This document shows, in pieces, positions 25,977 through 44,609 of a stretch of DNA of 64,000 bases. Location: NCBI GenBank assembly GCA_946623755.1, contig CAMORK010000001.1, positions 67,674 through 131,673 of the forward strand, read 5' to 3'. The notes beneath the pieces were generated by a model. The model saw nothing but the letters and a program-made list of their open reading frames with translations. It did no database searches and was not told where the DNA came from. Each line of letters starts with the position of its first letter. The stretch's first letter is position 1. Source of the stretch: an uncultured Butyrivibrio sp. Lineage in GTDB: Bacteria; Bacillota; Clostridia; Lachnospirales; Lachnospiraceae. The translations under genes and the position numbers were made by a program.

Positions 25977-27053
25977 CTAGTATTTTCCTGTAGACCTATT
26001 AAAAAATATCCTTCCGCTAGTATCAACTTCTCCATAATCTTCAAATGGAAAAAGAAATTCCTTTAGCTCATCACTAATTATTTTTATATCATTTTTATAT
26101 TGAGGGTATTTTTTTATGAGCTGTGTATTTGCAATTGATTTTTGCGGATTAAAAAACTCATATTTTCTAACATTTCGTTCCAACCCGCAAAACTCTTCAA
26201 CTATACTCACAGTTTTATCATATTCATAGATAAAACTCTCCATGTTCAGCATAAGAATATTACTATTATCTTTCCAATACACTTTTTCTCTAAGTTTTCG
26301 ATAAAAAGAGATAAACTTGTCCACATCATCAGCTGGTATTTGGTATCCGTTATTATATAGCAATCTAGCTGCCTTAAAAGCTATATAAACATCCCTTGGA
26401 TCTCTGTCTATGATTATGGCTTTAGCATCATCTCCGAAATACTTCATGCTAGCCAACGGATTTGTTGCTGAAAAAGGTTGGTCAAGTAACACTTTACCTT
26501 CAACATCCATGCCAAATGCCTTTATTATCTCATTGATATAAGCATTTGCCTTGGACGAAAAATCCAGATCATCCATTGCAAACTTATACTCGTGTAACCC
26601 CCAAGTGTGTTCAGTATTCTTATAAAGCAAACCTCTCTTTTTTAGTTTTCCTCCAATGGTCCACATTGGACGATTTAGATTTTTTGATCTAAATTGCTTT
26701 CCTTTCCCAAATAACTGATAGTCTAATGCGCTTCCGCCTTGGTATGTAATCTGAGCTATATCATCAATAAAACAGTTTGTAGCTTTTGAAATCTTTTCCC
26801 AAACATTCTTATCAAAAGATGAATCGTACAGCGCATTGTAATATGCCTTTTTAAATCGCTCTATAGCAACAACAGAAGACATATGTTTAATTCTGTGTGT
26901 ATTGATTTGGTATTCAAGATCCTCAAGTCCATCTGGATAATACGAAATCATAAACTCAAAGAAATCTAATGGTTGTATTTCTTCATATTCTTTCAACAAA
27001 TCTGTAACAAGGCTACTACCAGTTCCAATATATCCACATGCGCCAATTATCAT
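25977..27053 (-). CDS. P-loop sulfotransferase-fold protein
   Basis: N-terminal GYIGTGSS loop, LLDQ, RDPRDVY (3'-PB-like motif). Confidence 0.7.
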   Translation of the reverse strand: MIIGACGYIGTGSSLVTDLLKEYEEIQPLDFFEFMISYYPDGLEDLEYQINTHRIKHMSSVVAIERFKKAYYNALYDSSFDKNVWEKISKATNCFIDDIAQITYQGGSALDYQLFGKGKQFRSKNLNRPMWTIGGKLKKRGLLYKNTEHTWGLHEYKFAMDDLDFSSKANAYINEIIKAFGMDVEGKVLLDQPFSATNPLASMKYFGDDAKAIIIDRDPRDVYIAFKAARLLYNNGYQIPADDVDKFISFYRKLREKVYWKDNSNILMLNMESFIYEYDKTVSIVEEFCGLERNVRKYEFFNPQKSIANTQLIKKYPQYKNDIKIISDELKEFLFPFEDYGEVDTSGRIFFNRSTGKY

Positions 27054-27120
27054 TACTTACTCGTCTCCTTCTATTCACCTGTTACTGTTTCACCTATACA
27101 TATATTCCGATACTATAATG

Positions 27121-28425
27121 TCATGTGCTCTTTTTAAATAATCTCTTCAAAAAAACAAAGTCTTCCTTTTGCACCAAAAACATTTTATCAATTTTTATGC
27201 CATTACTTTTTGCAAACCAAACAACAAACACAACTCCCGTAATAAAATATCCAACTCCAGATGCAAATGCAGCTCCTTGTAGCTCATACTTCGGTATAAG
27301 TAGTATGTTTAACACCAAGTTAACCAGCACAGATATAGACAACAGCAGTAGGTTCCTAAATTGCATATGGTTGATTATATTGAATTGTGCTATTAACTTG
27401 AAATATCCTACAAACACTGAGCCAAACATACATATTATTAAGACATCATATGCCCCCTGATATTCAGCACCGTATAATATATCTATTATTTTTCTTCCAA
27501 ATAGTAGCAAAGAAATCCCAATGATCGCGCTCACTAAAAACGAAATCCTACATACCTTCGCAACCTCATTCTCATCCGCGCCTTTTGATAGTCTTGATAT
27601 GAGAACCCCCTTTAATGTATCCGGAATAATCGCAATTTTATCCGCAAAATTCATCCCAATAGAATAAACACCAATTTGTGCGGAAGTAATAAATGGAAAT
27701 GCACGCAACATTAGTACATCTATTTTGTAATTGAGAGTAGTCATAAGTAATGACAACATTGGGAAAAATCCGAATATTGCAGCCTCACGCAAGAATCTAA
27801 GATTTACATTTTGTACTTTAGGCACAACGCGTAATCTAATTGAAAAAACAACACATTTAAGAACCTCTTCAAAAGTCAGAATGAAAACAACCATGTTAAA
27901 GTTTCGTGAAACATATCTTGTGAGCAGCATCACAAGAAAAAGATCTATCAGCGCTATTATAATTGTCCAAGAATTATTCTTATTTGGGTTTTCGATAAGG
28001 CTTACATACTGTACTACCTTGGAATATCCAAAGAGGGGTATCAGTATAATAGAGACTTTGAGTTCTGCAGAACATGGAGATATTGTTGCAATGCACACTG
28101 AAATTAAAAGAAATGCTAAAAACAAAAAAAAGATGGAACTAATGTACTCTTCATAGATAGCATTCTTACCCTTTTCTTTTCTAAGGTAAGGGTATGCCTG
28201 ATGAATACCGCATGATATAACGATTGCTCCAACAGAAACAACCGACGAAATATACGCGTTAATACCCTGCAATCCTGCTCCCAAATAACGTGCAACAAGA
28301 ATCGATCTCCCTAAGACAATCAGCACGATAAGAATTTTGGTACAAACAGAAAACAAGTATTCATTTCCAATAAAAACTATTATTGGGTTCTTATTCTTTT
28401 TGTGATTAACGTTTTTAGTATTCAT
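27121..28425 (-). CDS. wzx: Polysaccharide flippase
   Basis: Multi-TM; ARYLG, KIDVLML, GVYS, LIPKYELQGAAFAS. Confidence 0.88.
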   Translation of the reverse strand: MNTKNVNHKKNKNPIIVFIGNEYLFSVCTKILIVLIVLGRSILVARYLGAGLQGINAYISSVVSVGAIVISCGIHQAYPYLRKEKGKNAIYEEYISSIFFLFLAFLLISVCIATISPCSAELKVSIILIPLFGYSKVVQYVSLIENPNKNNSWTIIIALIDLFLVMLLTRYVSRNFNMVVFILTFEEVLKCVVFSIRLRVVPKVQNVNLRFLREAAIFGFFPMLSLLMTTLNYKIDVLMLRAFPFITSAQIGVYSIGMNFADKIAIIPDTLKGVLISRLSKGADENEVAKVCRISFLVSAIIGISLLLFGRKIIDILYGAEYQGAYDVLIICMFGSVFVGYFKLIAQFNIINHMQFRNLLLLSISVLVNLVLNILLIPKYELQGAAFASGVGYFITGVVFVVWFAKSNGIKIDKMFLVQKEDFVFLKRLFKKST

Positions 28426-39793: not shown

Positions 39794-41374
39794 CTAATTC
39801 GGAGAAACCTTCTCCAAAACCGCTTCAATGCCGTCCTTTCTGGTGTATGAAGTGCCTCCGTCCATCAGGTCTTCATTTTTGACTGTCGAAGCGATAAAAG
39901 TGTTCTGCTCGGCTATCCTGTAGACTTCAGACTCGGTTTCCAGACCCTTTACGAGCGGTGTTTCCTCCACAGAGTCAAAATTGTCAAAAAGCACAGAACC
40001 TGCCGGAACTGTATTAGGATCCAGTTCATCAAGCTGCTGCATATAATTAAGATAGCCGACGCAGAATTTAAGTGATTCCGGATCTCCCTCGCATTCCGTT
40101 CTGTCTCCGTTATAATTTCCTTTGATGAAACGTTTTGTAAAATCCTCTGTATCGCTGTACATTCCATCAGAGATATCGGCGATGACTTCATCAAAAGTAT
40201 AACCCTCATGCATTTGGGAAAGGATAATACTGAGTCCCTCACGCAGTTTTTTGCCGGATATAGATTCTATCCGGCCGTTATCATCCATAACCACCGCGGG
40301 ACTACCTTCGGATTTCTGGTAAGCCAGATCAGCCAGATAGAGACAGGCCATATATCCGGACACATATGTAGCTGCGTTCACATGCCCGTCGGAATTATCC
40401 TCTTTTGATGCCTCCAGATCATATCGTTCATCCCCTGTTCCTTCCATGTAGCCCTGGTTGGCATATATGAACTTAAGCTGATCGTTTGTGCAGGTGTCGA
40501 TATAGTCCTGTTTTTCGCAATCGTATCGATATTCATTGAAATAATCAATATCAGCCTGGTAGATATTTCCGACGCATCCGGCGATTCCTTCAATGAACCA
40601 GTAAGGAAAAGATGTCGCGCCTATCAGCTCTTCATAGTCTTCATCGGAAAGCTGTTCCTCCATGGCCGCATAATAGGTGGCAAAATCAGTAAATCCCGTC
40701 ATTCCGGTTCGATTGTAGTCATCCATGAAAACATGGAAAAGCTCATGGCAGAAAATAGTGTCCAGCTTTGCCAGCGTATCATCATCAACCTCAAAGAACG
40801 GATTGCCATTGTCGTCAAATTCACAGAGTTCCTTGGCATCAATGCAGATCATATACTCATAGTTCTCGCTGCCGTCCTCTTCTTCTTCACAAAATCCCCC
40901 ATTGACATAGGCTAAGGCACCGGGCGCAACATACTCATGCTCGTCTATTCCGTCATTGTCACCGTTTTCATAATAGATGTATAGGCTTATTTCCTTGCCC
41001 AGTCCGTCTTGTCCGGCAGCTTCAGAAAAACATGGGAAACTATCTGCCAGGATATTCACTGCCTGTGGCTCAACAGAGGTCGTGACAAGCTCAACAAGTT
41101 CCACCAGTTCATCATATCCAAGGGCGTCAATTGCCGTCTGAGAGCAGTGTGCATCCACGAGATAATAAGGTTTTTCTGTCTCTGTGTCTTCCGTCACTTC
41201 TTCATTAGGCTCTTCTGCCTCTACAACTTCCGTCACTTCTTCATTAGGATCAGGCGAAGGAGCTTGATTGTCATAATCCGGCTTTGAGCCACAACCTGAA
41301 AGCATGCTAAAACAGAGTGACAAAGCTGCAATCATCGCTATAATACGTTTATTATTCTTATTAGACATAGGCAT
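39794..41374 (-). CDS. Acidic lipoprotein with gluzincin (flagellinolysin-like) metallopeptidase motif
   Basis: Lipobox LSGC; HELFH, PYWFIEG, YVSGYMACLYLA. Confidence 0.7.
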   Translation of the reverse strand: MPMSNKNNKRIIAMIAALSLCFSMLSGCGSKPDYDNQAPSPDPNEEVTEVVEAEEPNEEVTEDTETEKPYYLVDAHCSQTAIDALGYDELVELVELVTTSVEPQAVNILADSFPCFSEAAGQDGLGKEISLYIYYENGDNDGIDEHEYVAPGALAYVNGGFCEEEEDGSENYEYMICIDAKELCEFDDNGNPFFEVDDDTLAKLDTIFCHELFHVFMDDYNRTGMTGFTDFATYYAAMEEQLSDEDYEELIGATSFPYWFIEGIAGCVGNIYQADIDYFNEYRYDCEKQDYIDTCTNDQLKFIYANQGYMEGTGDERYDLEASKEDNSDGHVNAATYVSGYMACLYLADLAYQKSEGSPAVVMDDNGRIESISGKKLREGLSIILSQMHEGYTFDEVIADISDGMYSDTEDFTKRFIKGNYNGDRTECEGDPESLKFCVGYLNYMQQLDELDPNTVPAGSVLFDNFDSVEETPLVKGLETESEVYRIAEQNTFIASTVKNEDLMDGGTSYTRKDGIEAVLEKVSPN

Positions 41375-41389: not shown

Positions 41390-42073
41390 TTATATCCTGG
41401 CACACTCATACGTTTCCAGCGGCAGAGCAAGAAGTTCAACAATCTTAAGCTCGTCGCAGGCGTCATTTACTGCATTGTGAGTCTCTTGATAGCCGCCATT
41501 TCCCGTCAGCATATGCATAATGGGTTCAACGCCATAGTTACTCTTGAGGCGTCCGGTTTTACAACATGGAGCTGTCTCAGGGATGTACTTGTTGTACTGG
41601 CGATATGCAGCTATCCTCATGATATCGAACCACTCAAAGCCGCATAATTCCGGAAGATGTCCCAGATCAAACTTGGCATTATAGGCAAATATTCTGCTTA
41701 TGCCCTGATCCATCAAAAACTGCCCGATATCTGCCATTGCCTCATTCCTTGTACAGGTGATGGCTTTTGCATCCGTCTTGTACATAACTCCTGAATACAT
41801 TCCGCCTACGCGACACTCAGGATTAAAGATGTAATATCTTTTACCAAGTAATGCAAACGTCTCGGCATCTGCAAGTGCTACGCCCAGGGACATGACTTCG
41901 TCACACCAGTTGGTCTCTGTGTCGATGACCGCGATCATGTCTTTTGACGAATTGGGAACGAAAGGTGCTGATACAGGTTTTGGCGCCGGCGATGGTTGAG
42001 CAGCCTTGGTCCTCGGACTAGTCGAGGGTGTCTTTATCATATTAAGGAAATCGAGTGAAGAATTTACGTTCAT
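41390..42073 (-). CDS. DEDDh 3'-5' exonuclease-like protein
   Basis: IDTET, AYNAKFD, WFDIM, HNAVNDACD; TGnTATAAT 6 nt before the ATG (leaderless). Confidence 0.8.
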   Translation of the reverse strand: MNVNSSLDFLNMIKTPSTSPRTKAAQPSPAPKPVSAPFVPNSSKDMIAVIDTETNWCDEVMSLGVALADAETFALLGKRYYIFNPECRVGGMYSGVMYKTDAKAITCTRNEAMADIGQFLMDQGISRIFAYNAKFDLGHLPELCGFEWFDIMRIAAYRQYNKYIPETAPCCKTGRLKSNYGVEPIMHMLTGNGGYQETHNAVNDACDELKIVELLALPLETYECARI

Positions 42074-42105
42074 GGTGGTATTATACCATCTCTATCTTAA
42101 GGTGT

Positions 42106-42918
42106 TTACCTAAACCTTTTGCCAAACATCTCCATAACATTTTCCCTAATATCTTTGATATTAAGAGGGCAATACTCTGTTTCAAACGTCATGAGCAAGT
42201 TCTTGCCAAAATAGATTCCGTTCTTGCTGTAATCATTTAGTTTGATCAAATTTTTGGCTCGATATTCATCATCTTCAAGAATTCCCATATGCTCGTGGTA
42301 AATCACTCTCCGCCTCTTTACATCAAGCAAAGTAAAATCAGGATACTTGGCTCTGCCATCCTTTAAAACAAGCTTACACTCATATCTGTATGGAATTCCC
42401 AGGTCGTAATACATATCCGCCAACAGTTCTTCTGATTTTGAGCGAACCATCTCACCCTGATTTGTTGGATAAATCTTTTCCTCGGGTTTATAGGTGCTGG
42501 CTATGAATGATTCGCTTTGCCATGATTCGACGTAGGCTTTCTCATCAAGTATATAAGGTGAAATATACTTTCTTTTGCTTTTGTGCAATTCTTCCGCGGA
42601 CTTTTCAGCTGACCATTTATTTTGAAAATCAAGCAGATCGTCAATAATATCTATTTCTTTCCCGGCTCTTTGCAAAAAGACTCCATCGTATTCCTTCTGA
42701 ATCAGAGCTGTTACAAGAGGCTTGCTCTTCGCATTCATGTATTTCCCGCTAAAGCCGGTCTTGCTCGTAACATGGTAGAACTGCTGAAATCCATTGCCGT
42801 TTTGGGATGCTCTGATCCTGCCCTCAGGCGCATGCTTTAAATCTGCTTCTGCACATTTGATGGCATTCGAAAGCTCTTGTTTTCTATTTTGCAAAGCTTG
42901 CAAATAATCGTAATTCAT
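42106..42918 (-). CDS. PD-(D/E)XK endonuclease-like protein (T7 endonuclease I / Vsr-like C-terminal domain)
   Basis: VRSKSEELLAD..GIPYRYE..YPDFTL..IYHEHMG; N-terminal helix plus APEGRIR..FYH; RBS AAGGAG. Confidence 0.75.
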   Translation of the reverse strand: MNYDYLQALQNRKQELSNAIKCAEADLKHAPEGRIRASQNGNGFQQFYHVTSKTGFSGKYMNAKSKPLVTALIQKEYDGVFLQRAGKEIDIIDDLLDFQNKWSAEKSAEELHKSKRKYISPYILDEKAYVESWQSESFIASTYKPEEKIYPTNQGEMVRSKSEELLADMYYDLGIPYRYECKLVLKDGRAKYPDFTLLDVKRRRVIYHEHMGILEDDEYRAKNLIKLNDYSKNGIYFGKNLLMTFETEYCPLNIKDIRENVMEMFGKRFR

Positions 42919-42987
42919 TTATTCTTGCTCCTTTGGTATTTGGGATTTGATGGTTTTTTTGGGAATTTATATCGTAATTGGTGGATT

Positions 42988-43303
42988 TGTAGGACTAAGA
43001 AGGGATTGGATTGAAATCAGTCCGCAGTAATCAGGTATAATACTTGATCGATTCATTGCTTTGTCGGCCTATATAACTAATGAGTTTGCCTTAGTCCGAT
43101 ATGACACGCGAACTATATCGGCCTGATTTTCTGCTTATTATGAAGCAGTCCGACTTTATATTTGCAAAAGACATTTTCCACTTGATTCTGTCGTCTTGAT
43201 TTAAATGGAGTGAACTTCTAGTCCGACACACTCTCTAAAAAGCGACTCTTATCAGTGTCAGATGTCGGCCCAAAATGCGCCTGCATACAACTCCAGTCCG
43301 CAA
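42988..43303. repeat. Array of five palindromic units TGTCGGcCT-N22-AGTCCGaca with unique loops and linkers
   Basis: Units start at 42988, 43062, 43116, 43189, 43263; loops 22,22,22,22,23 nt; linkers 34,14,33,34 nt. Confidence 0.85.
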
Positions 43304-43396
43304 AACAGCAGGAAAAGCCTAGAAAGTCTCCAACATTCTATCCGCAAAACAGAGGAAAAGCCTAGAAAGTCTCCAACATCCTATCCGCAAAACAGA
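43297..43396. repeat. 43-44 bp tandem repeat, about 2.3 copies
   Basis: TCCGCAAAACAG(C)AGGAAAAGCCTAGAAAGTCTCCAACAT(T/C)CTA at 43297 and 43341, partial at 43384. Confidence 0.9.
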
Positions 43397-43783
43397 AGAA
43401 GAAAGCCCCAAAAAAGAAATTCCAACAAACATGCAGGAACCGGAAGACACTCATCCCGGGACTCGGCACAGAACCGCGTCCCACAAAGCCATGGCGTCAC
43501 ATCCCCCGGCACATGACATGACACAAAAATCAGTCACAGCCGATTTGCCAAAAGCCCACAAAAAAGGCAAGTAAAAGAACGCTGCAGAAAAGCGCAGCAA
43601 ACACACCCAGAGACAGTCCCTACATGTTTATTGTCTGAAGATATCACCCGGCAAAGAGACAGCGAATTCGACACGCTGCATGCCACGGATCCTGCCAGAA
43701 AACCCTAGCCGCAAAATCCTGAAGTGATTGCTCCGAACGGAGCAGAAATATTTTTATTCTTTCGTATATCAATCACCTAGGTC

Positions 43784-43866
43784 ACATTATCATCTAAAAA
43801 GAACCTTGTAAATAGGTTTGCTTCAATCTTAAGAATATCTATCGCAAATCTTAAGAAAGTCATAAG
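43784..43866 (-). promoter_or_regulatory. Promoter with phased CTTAAG boxes
   Basis: CTTAAG at 43828 and 43850, CATAAG at 43861; TTTACA-17-TAATGT with TG extension. Confidence 0.5.
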
Positions 43867-43937
43867 AATTACACGTTTTATCGATTACAGGCAATCAGCA
43901 TATCGTCCGCCCACTACAGAACAAGAAAAAAGGCAAG

Positions 43938-43971
43938 AAAAAAGACTGTGAAGCAAATCGCTTCACAGTCT
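43938..43971 (-). terminator. Intrinsic terminator
   Basis: 12-bp stem AGACTGTGAAGC/GCTTCACAGTCT with U-tract on the minus strand. Confidence 0.8.
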
Positions 43972-44018
43972 CATATTCTCTCTGTAAATCCAAATCAGGA
44001 TTCAGGCAGTTTCTAAAA

Positions 44019-44609
44019 TCACTTACCAAACTTAAGGAATCCGATCGATCCGACAATAGGTGCGTCCTTGGCCTTGCCCTGTAATACATAAATAATAGAG
44101 ATTACCTTGCAAACCAGAACGATAAGCATCAGAACTGCTCCAACGATCCATCCGATGATCGGAATAGCAAAGAACAGCAGGATTATCATAGAGATAATAT
44201 CGTACTGAATATTAACCTTAGTATGGAACTTAATAAACTCTGAATCCTTCACATACATTCCTGCAAGGATACCTGCAAGACATGAGAAGAAGTAAGGAAG
44301 CGCTGCAAAAAGCTTATTGTCAGCGATATCCCTGACATCAAAGTCTGCTGTGTGATCATTTGGATCAAATTTCTGGTACTGCTGGTATCCGGGCTGTGGC
44401 TGGAATCCCGGCTGAGGCTGGAATCCCTGCTGAGGCTGGAATCCGGGCTGTGGCTGAACACCGGGTGCCGGTGCAGGTGTAGGAGCCTGCTGGCCTGCCT
44501 CTGCGCCTGCTGCAGAAGCAGGAGTGCTCTCTGTAAGTGCACTGCCACAATTATTGCAAAATACTGCATCATCAGGAACCTGAGTTCCGCAATTAGCACA
44601 AATCTTCAT
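44019..44609 (-). CDS. Zinc-ribbon membrane protein (DUF4870-like C-terminus) with QPQ(P/Q)GF repeats
   Basis: CANCG..FCNNCG, 18-bp repeats, three TM segments. Confidence 0.82.
   Translation of the reverse strand: MKICANCGTQVPDDAVFCNNCGSALTESTPASAAGAEAGQQAPTPAPAPGVQPQPGFQPQQGFQPQPGFQPQPGYQQYQKFDPNDHTADFDVRDIADNKLFAALPYFFSCLAGILAGMYVKDSEFIKFHTKVNIQYDIISMIILLFFAIPIIGWIVGAVLMLIVLVCKVISIIYVLQGKAKDAPIVGSIGFLKFGK

Follow-up and report, generated by a model that had tools for sequence, protein, structure and literature searches.

Chromosomal proteins with a predicted PD-(D/E)xK nuclease fold adjoin helically phased arrays of gapped palindromes in gut and rumen Clostridia

In a stretch of 64,000 nucleotides from the genome of an uncultured Butyrivibrio species (GenBank assembly GCA_946623755.1; the whole stretch is called the window below), a gene for a protein of 270 residues, to which we refer as p270, stands beside an array of five gapped palindromes, each made of two inverted arms and an interior of nearly constant length. 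Here we report that such a link between gene and array is general in the p270 family, that the sequence of the arms co-varies with the clade of the protein, that neighbouring units are spaced in whole turns of the DNA helix, that arrays of the same type are dispersed in the genome, and that the C-terminal domain of the protein belongs by its predicted fold to the PD-(D/E)xK class of nucleases. These observations point to an undescribed protein-DNA system in gut and rumen Clostridia, and from them we infer that p270 binds the arms of its array. Our literature search returned no description of the family or of its arrays, prior work in subscription journals being still possible. An earlier, sequence-only reading of the window had proposed a nuclease with a cognate array; this core of it is borne out by the homologues described below, and its interpretation as a whole is partly supported.

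The window is part of contig C1 of a 2.3-Mb, 60%-complete assembly (G000), and the p270 gene occupies positions 42106 to 42918 of the window on the minus strand. Beside it, at 42988 to 43303, lie five units of the approximate form TRTCGGMCT-N22/23-AGTCCGAYA, none of which is assigned to a strand. Unit 1 (TGTAGGACT-N22-AGTCCGCAG, 42988 to 43027) lies 70 bp upstream of the p270 start codon and is followed by unit 2 (TGTCGGCCT-N22-AGTCCGATA, 43062 to 43101), by unit 3 (TATCGGCCT-N22-AGTCCGACT, 43116 to 43155), which begins 54 bp, or five helical turns, past unit 2, by unit 4 (TGTCGTCTT-N22-AGTCCGACA, 43189 to 43228) and by unit 5 (TGTCGGCCC-N23-AGTCCGCAA, 43263 to 43303). The arms are 9 nt long, the interiors measure 22, 22, 22, 22 and 23 nt, the linkers 34, 14, 33 and 34 nt, and the distances from start to start are 74, 54, 73 and 74 bp. 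The hexamer AGTCCG is invariant and occurs on the plus strand only, at 43019, 43093, 43147, 43220 and 43295; its genome-wide frequency of 0.232 per kb gives an expectation of about 0.07 in these 316 bp, and the Poisson probability of five or more occurrences is about 2e-8. The intergenic region that holds the array has no copy of the complementary CGGACT. No similarity among the units was found in the interiors or the linkers when the units were compared with one another. Up to this point the sequence-only reading was exact, in its coordinates, interiors, linkers and periods, in the invariant hexamer and in the dissimilarity of segments whose length is held. Its description of the arms as approximate reverse complements stands only as a rough match: 29 of the 45 positions are Watson-Crick pairs, the units of the genome when pooled give the half-site consensus RTCGGACTRA, and what is conserved in the window array is this half-site, not a stem.

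Both the gene, at about 90% protein identity, and all five units are present in Butyrivibrio sp. NC2007 (G004) and in the metagenome-assembled genome (MAG) RGIG9253 (G230). Across the three species, the variable sites amount to 6 of 90 positions in the arms (6.7%), 16 of 111 in the interiors and 16 of 115 in the linkers (about 14% outside the arms). In other words, the window array is stable, its interiors show no turnover and its arms are kept somewhat better than the rest. The suggestion that the interiors are a record of captured sequences, as in a CRISPR-like array, is contradicted by their conservation of about 86% in G230 and G004, and by the copying of whole arrays at 95-98% identity that is described below.

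The generality of the link was examined in 80 homologue loci, with protein identities of 33-90%, from Butyrivibrio, other Lachnospiraceae, Oscillospiraceae and unclassified rumen Clostridiales. The 800 bp on each side of the p270-family gene were scanned for 8-mer arms with at least seven of eight positions complementary and a gap of 12-34 nt, which had to recur with the same arm (at most one mismatch) and the same gap (within 1 nt). At least three recurring gapped palindromes lie near the gene in 47 of the 80 loci (34 upstream and 15 downstream, including two with arrays on both sides) and at least two in 62 of the 80; both counts are lower bounds, the detector recovering two of the five window units. 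Distal control windows of 800 bp at the same loci held three or more units in none of 141 cases and two in one of 141, and shuffled flanks never held more than one (0 of 35 above one). Even a family member that is only 33% identical (L138) has seven units of TGTAGGCT-N22-AGCCTACA downstream of its gene. The link between gene and array is thus general in the family. Housekeeping genes recur as neighbours, greA-lysS on the upstream side in 15 loci and speE-speB on the downstream side in seven; no partner gene is common to the 80 loci, and no cas gene, Par ATPase, Rep or integrase recurs among them.

In a maximum likelihood tree of the homologues (built by a quick search), sister proteins have common arms and well-supported clades differ, a co-variation that the sequence-only reading had proposed as a test and that the tree upholds. 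Common arms are seen in the pairs L078/L100 (TAGGATGCA), L097/L104 (TACGACTAA), L105/L123 (ATGCCTAA), L081/L099 (ATGACTTTTT) and L073/L074 (CAGATAA); TACGGATAA is the arm of a clade of six members, TACGGATAAG is found in six Butyrivibrio loci and AGGATAAA in four loci, and at least 20 different arm sequences occur across the loci examined. The side of the array is also specific to the clade, being upstream in Lachnospiraceae clades and downstream in others. Within G000 itself, three p270 paralogues have three different arms: TCGGACT, TCAGCTACA and TCGCACAT. The second of these belongs to the paralogue on contig C89, which has four units of TCAGCTACA-N19-TGTAGCTGA with a period of 54 bp, and the third to the paralogue on C23, which has four units of approximately TCGCACAT-N19-ATGTGCGA. 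Loci with conserved synteny (lysS-array-gene, or gene-array-speE/speB) differ in their arms, and therefore protein and array appear to have changed together in place.

The 160 spacings between neighbouring units (up to 130 bp) fall at 52-56 bp (65 cases), 62-64 bp (18), 73-75 bp (45), 83-85 bp (24) and 94 bp (2), or at multiples of these, and none at 57-61, 65-72, 76-82 or 86-93 bp; the units are not independent, as tandem duplication propagates one period, yet at least 20 arm families contribute to these counts. The class means of about 53, 63.5, 74.5, 84.5 and 94 bp are separated by steps of about 10.3 bp, that is, one turn of B-DNA. Because the spacing follows helical-turn steps, the constraint acts on double-stranded DNA, and the pattern reads as the signature of proteins seated on one face of the duplex. 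Different classes are mixed inside single arrays (74/54/73/74 in the window, 74/85/73 in L048, 73/85/85/74/84 in L105, 63/75/62/63 in L113 and 73/53/73/73 in L138), and solitary arrays, with spacings of 74-75 and 85-86 bp, follow the same pattern. Measured over its outer ends, a unit spans 34-41 bp, so that about three helical turns separate its arms. Its A+T content is highest at the centre and near 9 and 18 bp on either side, a weak hint, from composition, at DNA bending. Within arrays, the identity between units is 0.93 in the arms, 0.62 in the interiors and 0.55 in the linkers, figures that are partly circular because the units were found by their arms. In five loci (L050, L051, L057, L094 and L097), interiors and linkers are near random (0.2-0.4) at a period of exactly 53 bp, and the window array offers a like picture. 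The proposal that selection acts on the sequence and the spacing of the arms is in agreement with this constraint in helical steps.

The open reading frame of p270 is real, as had been supposed: it has 322 close homologues and 5,798 cluster representatives (clusters at 50% identity) at E<=1e-3, nearly all of 260-280 residues, and its AlphaFold2 model reaches a pLDDT of 94. The protein matches no Pfam or NCBIfam family, and a phmmer and profile search of the PDB sequences returned no match to any solved structure, nucleases included. In the model, residues 1-123 form a helical hairpin and a small sheet of three strands, and an alpha/beta domain follows at the C-terminus (about 125-265). Because a fold search with the whole model gave only generic helical hairpins, over residues 1-114, the C-terminal domain was folded alone (pLDDT 95.6). 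Its best VIA matches were I-Bth0305I (Z 8.4), TnsA (8.3), Bax1 (7.9), NGO0050 (7.8) and Vsr (7.2), followed in VIA and Foldseek by Can2, VRR-NUC, Hjc and restriction enzymes, so that nearly all top matches are PD-(D/E)xK nucleases; Foldseek on the domain gave the same class. The modelled domain, with an alpha-beta-beta-beta-alpha-beta core, can on this basis be assigned to the PD-(D/E)xK superfamily. In PADLOC, residues 140-265 match the C-terminus of a defence candidate of 1,200 residues, PDC-S68 (E 4.5e-25), and the HEAT_CxxC_PD-DEXK model matches p270 with E 1e-4. As a separate observation that agrees with the PDC-S68 match, the nuclease domain alone (about 141-261) recurs at the C-terminus of large proteins annotated as AAA family ATPases or helicases on plasmids of Proteobacteria, Bacteroidota and cyanobacteria. 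With the exception of two weak fecal contigs, practically no full-length member of the family occurs among 72,556 plasmids and 50,697 phage records; a chromosome carries 5-8 paralogues.

Six residues, K161, S162, E163, D194, E209 and H210, are invariant in 44 sequences of the family. Judged from the alignment, acidic residues occupy the canonical PD-(D/E)xK positions, with E163 in the helix, D194 in the PDF motif and E209 in the next strand; the canonical lysine of (D/E)xK is replaced by M, L or F, within the pattern [IV]YHEH[LMF]G. Vsr-like enzymes likewise have no canonical lysine. The invariant acidic triad argues for retained nuclease chemistry. Structure prediction suggests that p270 forms a homodimer, with an ipSAE of 0.62 against 0.00 for the best control; among proteins solved as pairs 20 of 30 attain this mark, and among those solved as single chains 1 of 23. 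The runs have at least 96% of their contacts in common and a pLDDT of at least 86. In the modelled interface, the antiparallel helices 1-23 and 69-123 pack together, residue 95 against residue 95, along with part of the C-terminal domain.

The arrays are not confined to the neighbourhood of the gene. The window-type unit is present at 10 or more further intergenic loci in G000 (at least 11 in all), which the sequence-only reading had overlooked. Contigs C8, C10, C41 and C44 each hold a four-unit array with a period of 84 bp, and C6 holds two. C12 has three units, C13 and C48 have pairs at a distance of 157-158 bp, and the C4 copy is truncated by the end of its contig. Unrelated housekeeping genes flank them: pyrB/pyrI and a sodium symporter, groEL and a GGDEF protein, clpX and engB, a chromate transporter, and a CAP protein and hicB; two of the solitary arrays lie between convergent genes. 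The copies on C8, C10, C41 and C4 have 95-98% identity over 110-400 bp, interiors and linkers included, whereas the orthologous chromosomal locus has 84-90% identity between species, from which it follows that these copies are recent. Of 88 genomes in the genus, only G000, G004, G230 and G231 have the window-type unit, and in a sample of 150 other genera of the family, with one genome each, it occurs at chance level only. At orthologous sites, solitary arrays persist in G004 and G231. The recent copies of whole arrays, together with their presence or absence between species, argue that the arrays spread.

Other arm types behave in the same manner. The unit ACGGATAA-N19-23-TTATCCGT (at most one mismatch) has 28, 22, 8, 33 and 5 sites in five genomes, against 0-2 for the reversed control, and ATGCCTAA-N18-24-TTAGGCAT (at most one mismatch) has 41 and 35 sites in two Lachnospiraceae MAGs and none in three genomes whose p270 proteins have other arms. 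Genomes with dispersed ACGGATAA or ATGCCTAA arms have 7-8 p270 paralogues each; for any one arm type, a single array stands next to a gene, the others being solitary and intergenic. Beyond the arrays adjacent to their genes, no solitary copies of the C89-type or C23-type arms were found in G000, which is 60% complete. It had been foreseen that a unit scattered over the genome independently of the gene would speak against the pairing; the unit is indeed scattered, but not independently, as arm types occur only in genomes with the matching protein clade.

Several local features of the dispersed copies should be mentioned. The C10 array (G000:C10:52500-52975, L002) is followed by a hairpin terminator (CTCACGGA-N6-TCCGTGAG and a T run); the same hairpin also flanks the C8 copy, on the other side, and about 180 bp beyond it on C10 (L002:5574-5748) lies a D1-D4 fragment of a group II intron (RF02001, 37.9 bits). 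Of the copies, only that on C10 is enclosed by a 12-bp inverted repeat, TGTAGACAAAGT; where this sequence occurs elsewhere (C5, C68), it is one-sided or unrelated. At the groEL locus, G230 has no array, and the flanking intergenic DNA is too diverged to define the ends of an insertion. Downstream of groEL, both G000 (C41:690-830, L003) and G230 (C24:1440-1530, L037) have a different tandem repeat of about 47 bp, whose unit holds a short hairpin, AAAATTGC-GCA-GCAATTTT, after ACAACGGACGACAG; in G000 the four-unit TCGGACT array comes after this repeat. On C12 (24480-24570, L025), about three copies of a tandem repeat of 34-35 bp, similar to GTGCTAATGTGTGAAGTACCTTTTGAGCATGTTG, directly precede the three-unit TCGGACT-type array, and 2 kb from that array lies a p270 paralogue (26858-27619) that is 28% identical to the window protein. 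The solitary C8 array (G000:C8:12976-13376) lies at a break of synteny, its left flank with pyrB/pyrI corresponding to C11 of G004 and its right flank to C9 and C3 of G004. Arrays may thus mark points of rearrangement.

We think it rather probable that the arrays are binding sites of p270 and that the protein has a nuclease-linked role in their maintenance or spread. Proteins of the family, of about 265 residues, would form symmetric homodimers through the antiparallel helical hairpin and carry a Vsr/TnsA-like PD-(D/E)xK domain, as the models suggest. Each dimer would recognise one gapped palindrome on double-stranded DNA, its two DNA-reading parts matching the 8-10 bp arms about three helical turns apart, and would leave the interior unread. 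With neighbouring sites 5, 6, 7 or 8 turns apart, the dimers would sit on one face of the helix and could join cooperatively in a nucleoprotein complex of higher order. Gene and array would then be a heritable pair with co-evolving specificity, the pair in the window using RTCGGACT arms, and arrays of matching specificity would be copied to other intergenic sites, giving a gene with a cognate dispersed repeat by analogy with RAYT/REP. Finally, p270 would cut or nick DNA by means of E163, D194, E209 and H210, and this activity might maintain or spread the arrays by break-induced copying, which is the weakest step of the proposal.

Several observations weigh against this explanation, in addition to the partial circularity of the arm identities mentioned above. 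The detector found no array in 18 of the 80 loci, some of which are truncated or degenerate. Many gene-array pairs stand at syntenic housekeeping positions across families, and this synteny suits a host function as much as a persistent selfish element. To judge from the missing canonical lysine, catalysis by p270 is not assured. The recent copies have ragged, unequal boundaries, which differ among C8, C10 and C41, and no target-site duplication; classical transposition is therefore unlikely, and the ragged ends suggest recombination or break-induced copying instead. G231, which is 88% complete, has window-type arrays and no close p270 orthologue (best match 41%), so that arrays can outlive or dispense with the gene.

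Among the alternatives, a host function deserves to be considered first, and we regard it as unlikely. The p270 family would then consist of DNA-binding regulators or architectural proteins that use the nuclease fold mainly for binding; the adjoining array would serve as an operator or roadblock in autoregulation, and the solitary arrays would have other regulatory or structural uses, for instance as insulators, anchors or fork barriers. The logic of binding sites is identical to that of the binding-array explanation, and this alternative is in keeping with the position of upstream arrays between any upstream promoter and the gene, to within 27-100 bp of the start codon, with the retention of gene-array pairs at conserved housekeeping positions across families, with the persistence of solitary arrays at orthologous sites in G004 and G231, and with the missing catalytic lysine. 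On the contrary, the solitary arrays show no preference for promoter-bearing regions: the 12 in G259 and G255 lie between divergent genes in three cases, convergent genes in three and tandem genes in six, which is the chance expectation, and two arrays of G000 are likewise between convergent genes. One array-bearing locus in three has its array downstream of the gene. Pure binding does not require the invariant E163, D194, E209 and H210, and recent copies with 95-98% identity at unrelated loci resemble spread and not a regulon. A selfish system of the REPIN/RAYT kind and a host function in regulation or architecture are both compatible with the conserved synteny and the old solitary arrays.

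It is very unlikely that the system works at the level of RNA, with arrays transcribed and processed to hairpin RNAs that act as inhibitors or guides of the nuclease, on the model of type III toxin-antitoxin systems or CRISPR. The resemblance is one of layout: p270 loci share with ToxIN and CRISPR a repeat array beside a nuclease gene, tandem repeats directly upstream of such a gene recall toxI-toxN, near-identical units are found in several loci, some arrays abut the ribosome-binding site and may be a co-transcribed leader, and the alternation of conserved and variable segments can be mistaken for repeats and spacers. However, a spacing quantised at about 10.5 bp, the phasing of duplex DNA, is meaningless for RNA, and the arms show no excess of wobble pairs. 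Among 1,690 arm position pairs there are 85 G-T mismatches, 83 A-C and 309 others, G-T and A-C together being no commoner than expected, and the equality of the two argues against an RNA hairpin. Moreover, the interiors have 20 nt or more and are unpaired, arrays are downstream of the gene in 15 loci, and the supposed spacers are stable, being conserved between species and copied within the genome instead of turned over. The arrays match no Rfam family (gathering threshold on seven array loci; E<=1 on 42000-44200), the only match being the group II intron fragment near the C10 array, and the loci have no cas or Nop-domain genes and no ToxN-like fold; the arms, unlike CRISPR repeats, are inverted and degenerate, and whole arrays are duplicated. 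In four metatranscriptome runs (Logan contigs), no contig covers 42954-43397 and some cover 43509-43922 and the gene for a 196-residue protein, a cover so sparse overall that it speaks neither for nor against transcription of the array. The earlier idea of hairpins processed into small RNAs finds no support in the arms, which show no excess of G-U wobble, in Rfam, or in the phasing, which is that of duplex DNA.

The F plasmid partition site sopC, the target of SopB, consists of twelve 43-bp units, each with an inverted repeat. By analogy with this or with iteron/Rep layouts, phased inverted-repeat arrays beside the gene of a binding protein could be centromere-like or iteron-like sites of integrated plasmids or phages, with p270 as a partition or replication protein; tandem inverted-repeat units, each bound by a dimer, and a higher-order nucleoprotein assembly would be common to both systems. 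We hold this to be highly improbable. The full-length family is essentially absent from the plasmid and phage records, the loci are chromosomal with housekeeping neighbours and no recurring Par ATPase, Rep or integrase, the family has 5-8 paralogues in each chromosome, and the fold is a different one. Least probable of all is chance adjacency of an ordinary dispersed intergenic repeat (of the MITE, BOX or REP-like kind) to an unrelated gene, which dispersal alone, with the unit in at least 10 other arrays beside pyrI, groEL, clpX and the chromate transporter and with a TCGGACT array adjoining only one of the five p270 paralogues of G000, would have suggested, and against which stand the adjacency in 47 of 80 loci and none of 141 controls, the agreement of arm type with the protein tree, the absence of arm types from genomes without the matching clade, and the fact that the array-bearing loci, with protein identities of 33-52% and different neighbours, are not one recently transferred segment. 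Taken jointly, the RNA, plasmid-remnant and chance-adjacency readings have only a small chance of being right.

In its logic, the nearest analogue of the p270 system is RAYT/REP, and the analogy, which the sequence-only reading had drawn, held in the tests that were run. Both consist of a chromosomal nuclease gene, inherited for the most part vertically, and a palindromic repeat of its own that stands next to it and is also scattered over intergenic regions; one genome holds several gene/repeat specificities, and the association is of long persistence. In p270 loci the array is mostly on one side of the gene, on both sides in two of the 80. There are also clear differences. RAYTs are HUH/Y1 single-strand DNA transposases, and REPs are tight hairpins acting as single-stranded DNA (PMC3116915, PMC3337134, bioRxiv 10.1101/2021.07.10.451892). 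In contrast, p270 has a predicted PD-(D/E)xK fold, not the HUH/Y1 (IS200/IS605-like) one, and no homology was detected between them; its units have 8-10 bp arms around an unpaired interior of 17-26 bp, its arrays hold 3-10 units spaced by whole helical turns of duplex DNA, and its copies are counted in tens, not hundreds.

In its structure, the nearest analogue is I-Bth0305I, the best match of the C-terminal domain (Z 8.4, rmsd 3.2 over 93 residues). I-Bth0305I is an 'EDxHD' homing endonuclease, a multidomain homodimer with a Vsr-like catalytic domain and a pseudopalindromic footprint of about 60 bp (PMC3239194). It is encoded in an intron and cuts one site around a 14-bp core with no array of sites, whereas p270 is free-standing and accompanied by arrays; p270 reads YHEHMGILEDDEY and HEHxG..DD in place of the EDxHD motif, and a profile search gave no match to 3r3p or 1cw0. 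By fold, p270 also belongs to the same PD-(D/E)xK branch as TnsA of Tn7 and Vsr (Z 8.3 and 7.2), and like Vsr it has no canonical lysine and a conserved histidine beside an acidic residue. It differs from both in the lack of a Pfam TnsA or Vsr match, of a TnsB/C partner and of a mismatch-repair context, and in its N-terminal helical dimerisation hairpin. We conclude that p270 is a demonstrated member of neither the RAYT/REP nor the I-Bth0305I family.

The sequence-only reading had compared p270 with T7 endonuclease I. The placement in the PD-(D/E)xK superfamily stands, along with the order of the motifs (a helix E, then PD, then E on the next strand) and the predicted dimeric state. Membership in the family itself does not: p270 has M, L or F for the lysine and thus not the catalytic E...D...E-x-K, the Pfam family Phage_endo_I was not matched (a scan at E up to 10 gave only two unrelated weak families), there is no PDB sequence match, and the nearest folds are I-Bth0305I, TnsA, Bax1 and Vsr. 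T7 endonuclease I was not among the best 50 fold matches in four fold searches, though absence from such a list is no exclusion. That enzyme is structure-specific for junctions, whereas the p270 units are poor cruciform formers. An identity as a Hjc-type resolvase was also considered and rejected, the matches being weak or absent.

The surroundings of the window locus add some further observations. A 43-bp tandem repeat (43297 to 43400, 2.4 copies with 95% matches, no strand assigned), also overlooked before, starts within the right arm of unit 5, with which its repeat unit begins, and is one copy shorter in G230 and G004 than in the window; a link between this repeat and the array is uncertain. 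A promoter and terminator scan of 42850-44100 found no sigma-70-like site in or beside the array, and its sole terminator, at 43942-43972, belongs to the gene for the 196-residue protein. Between the array and this terminator lie about 540 bp of A/C-rich non-coding DNA (43400-43940), of which the part at 43390-43689 is 87-97% conserved in G230 and G004, equal to the flanking genes; two short metatranscriptome contigs (43509-43745 and 43656-43922) cover the region, which may be an untranslated RNA or a decayed gene. On the other side, directly downstream of p270, a gene on the minus strand (41390-42073) encodes a protein of 227 residues similar to DEDDh 3'-5' exonucleases (PADLOC DEDDh, E 1.8e-6; phrog_192, weak). 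Its start is 32 bp from the p270 stop codon, and it accompanies p270 only in the closest orthologues, in about 6 of the 80 loci. The next gene on the minus strand (39794-41374) encodes a lipoprotein-like protein of 526 residues with an HExxH motif and no Pfam family, weakly similar to flagellinolysin (NCBIfam NF033876, E 4e-12, far under the cut-off).

A wider claim can be put forward only tentatively, and we would not yet wager on it: p270 and its arrays may be an unrecognised class of chromosomal protein-DNA system in Clostridia, with dozens of private specificity pairs, in which a dimeric, Vsr-like nuclease spaced by a coiled coil assembles on phased arrays and copies them. If this is true, a family of about 5,800 clusters would gain a testable activity, namely the sequence-specific binding, and probably the cutting, of phased gapped palindromes. 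The family would offer a natural library of matched modules for the recognition of long DNA sites, and the code of recognition could be read from its matched pairs of protein and site, with at least 20 arm sequences at hand. The carriers include cultured members of the Hungate collection (Butyrivibrio sp. NC2007, B. proteoclasticus P18 and B. hungatei NK4A153), which makes experiments feasible. The arrays would also be a clean example of helical-phase constraint in bacterial genomes and would explain repeat arrays that repeat finders may take for orphan CRISPRs. Beside REPIN/RAYT, the system would be a second and mechanistically independent persistent intragenomic replicator, and as such it would bear on the persistence of repetitive DNA in compact bacterial genomes.

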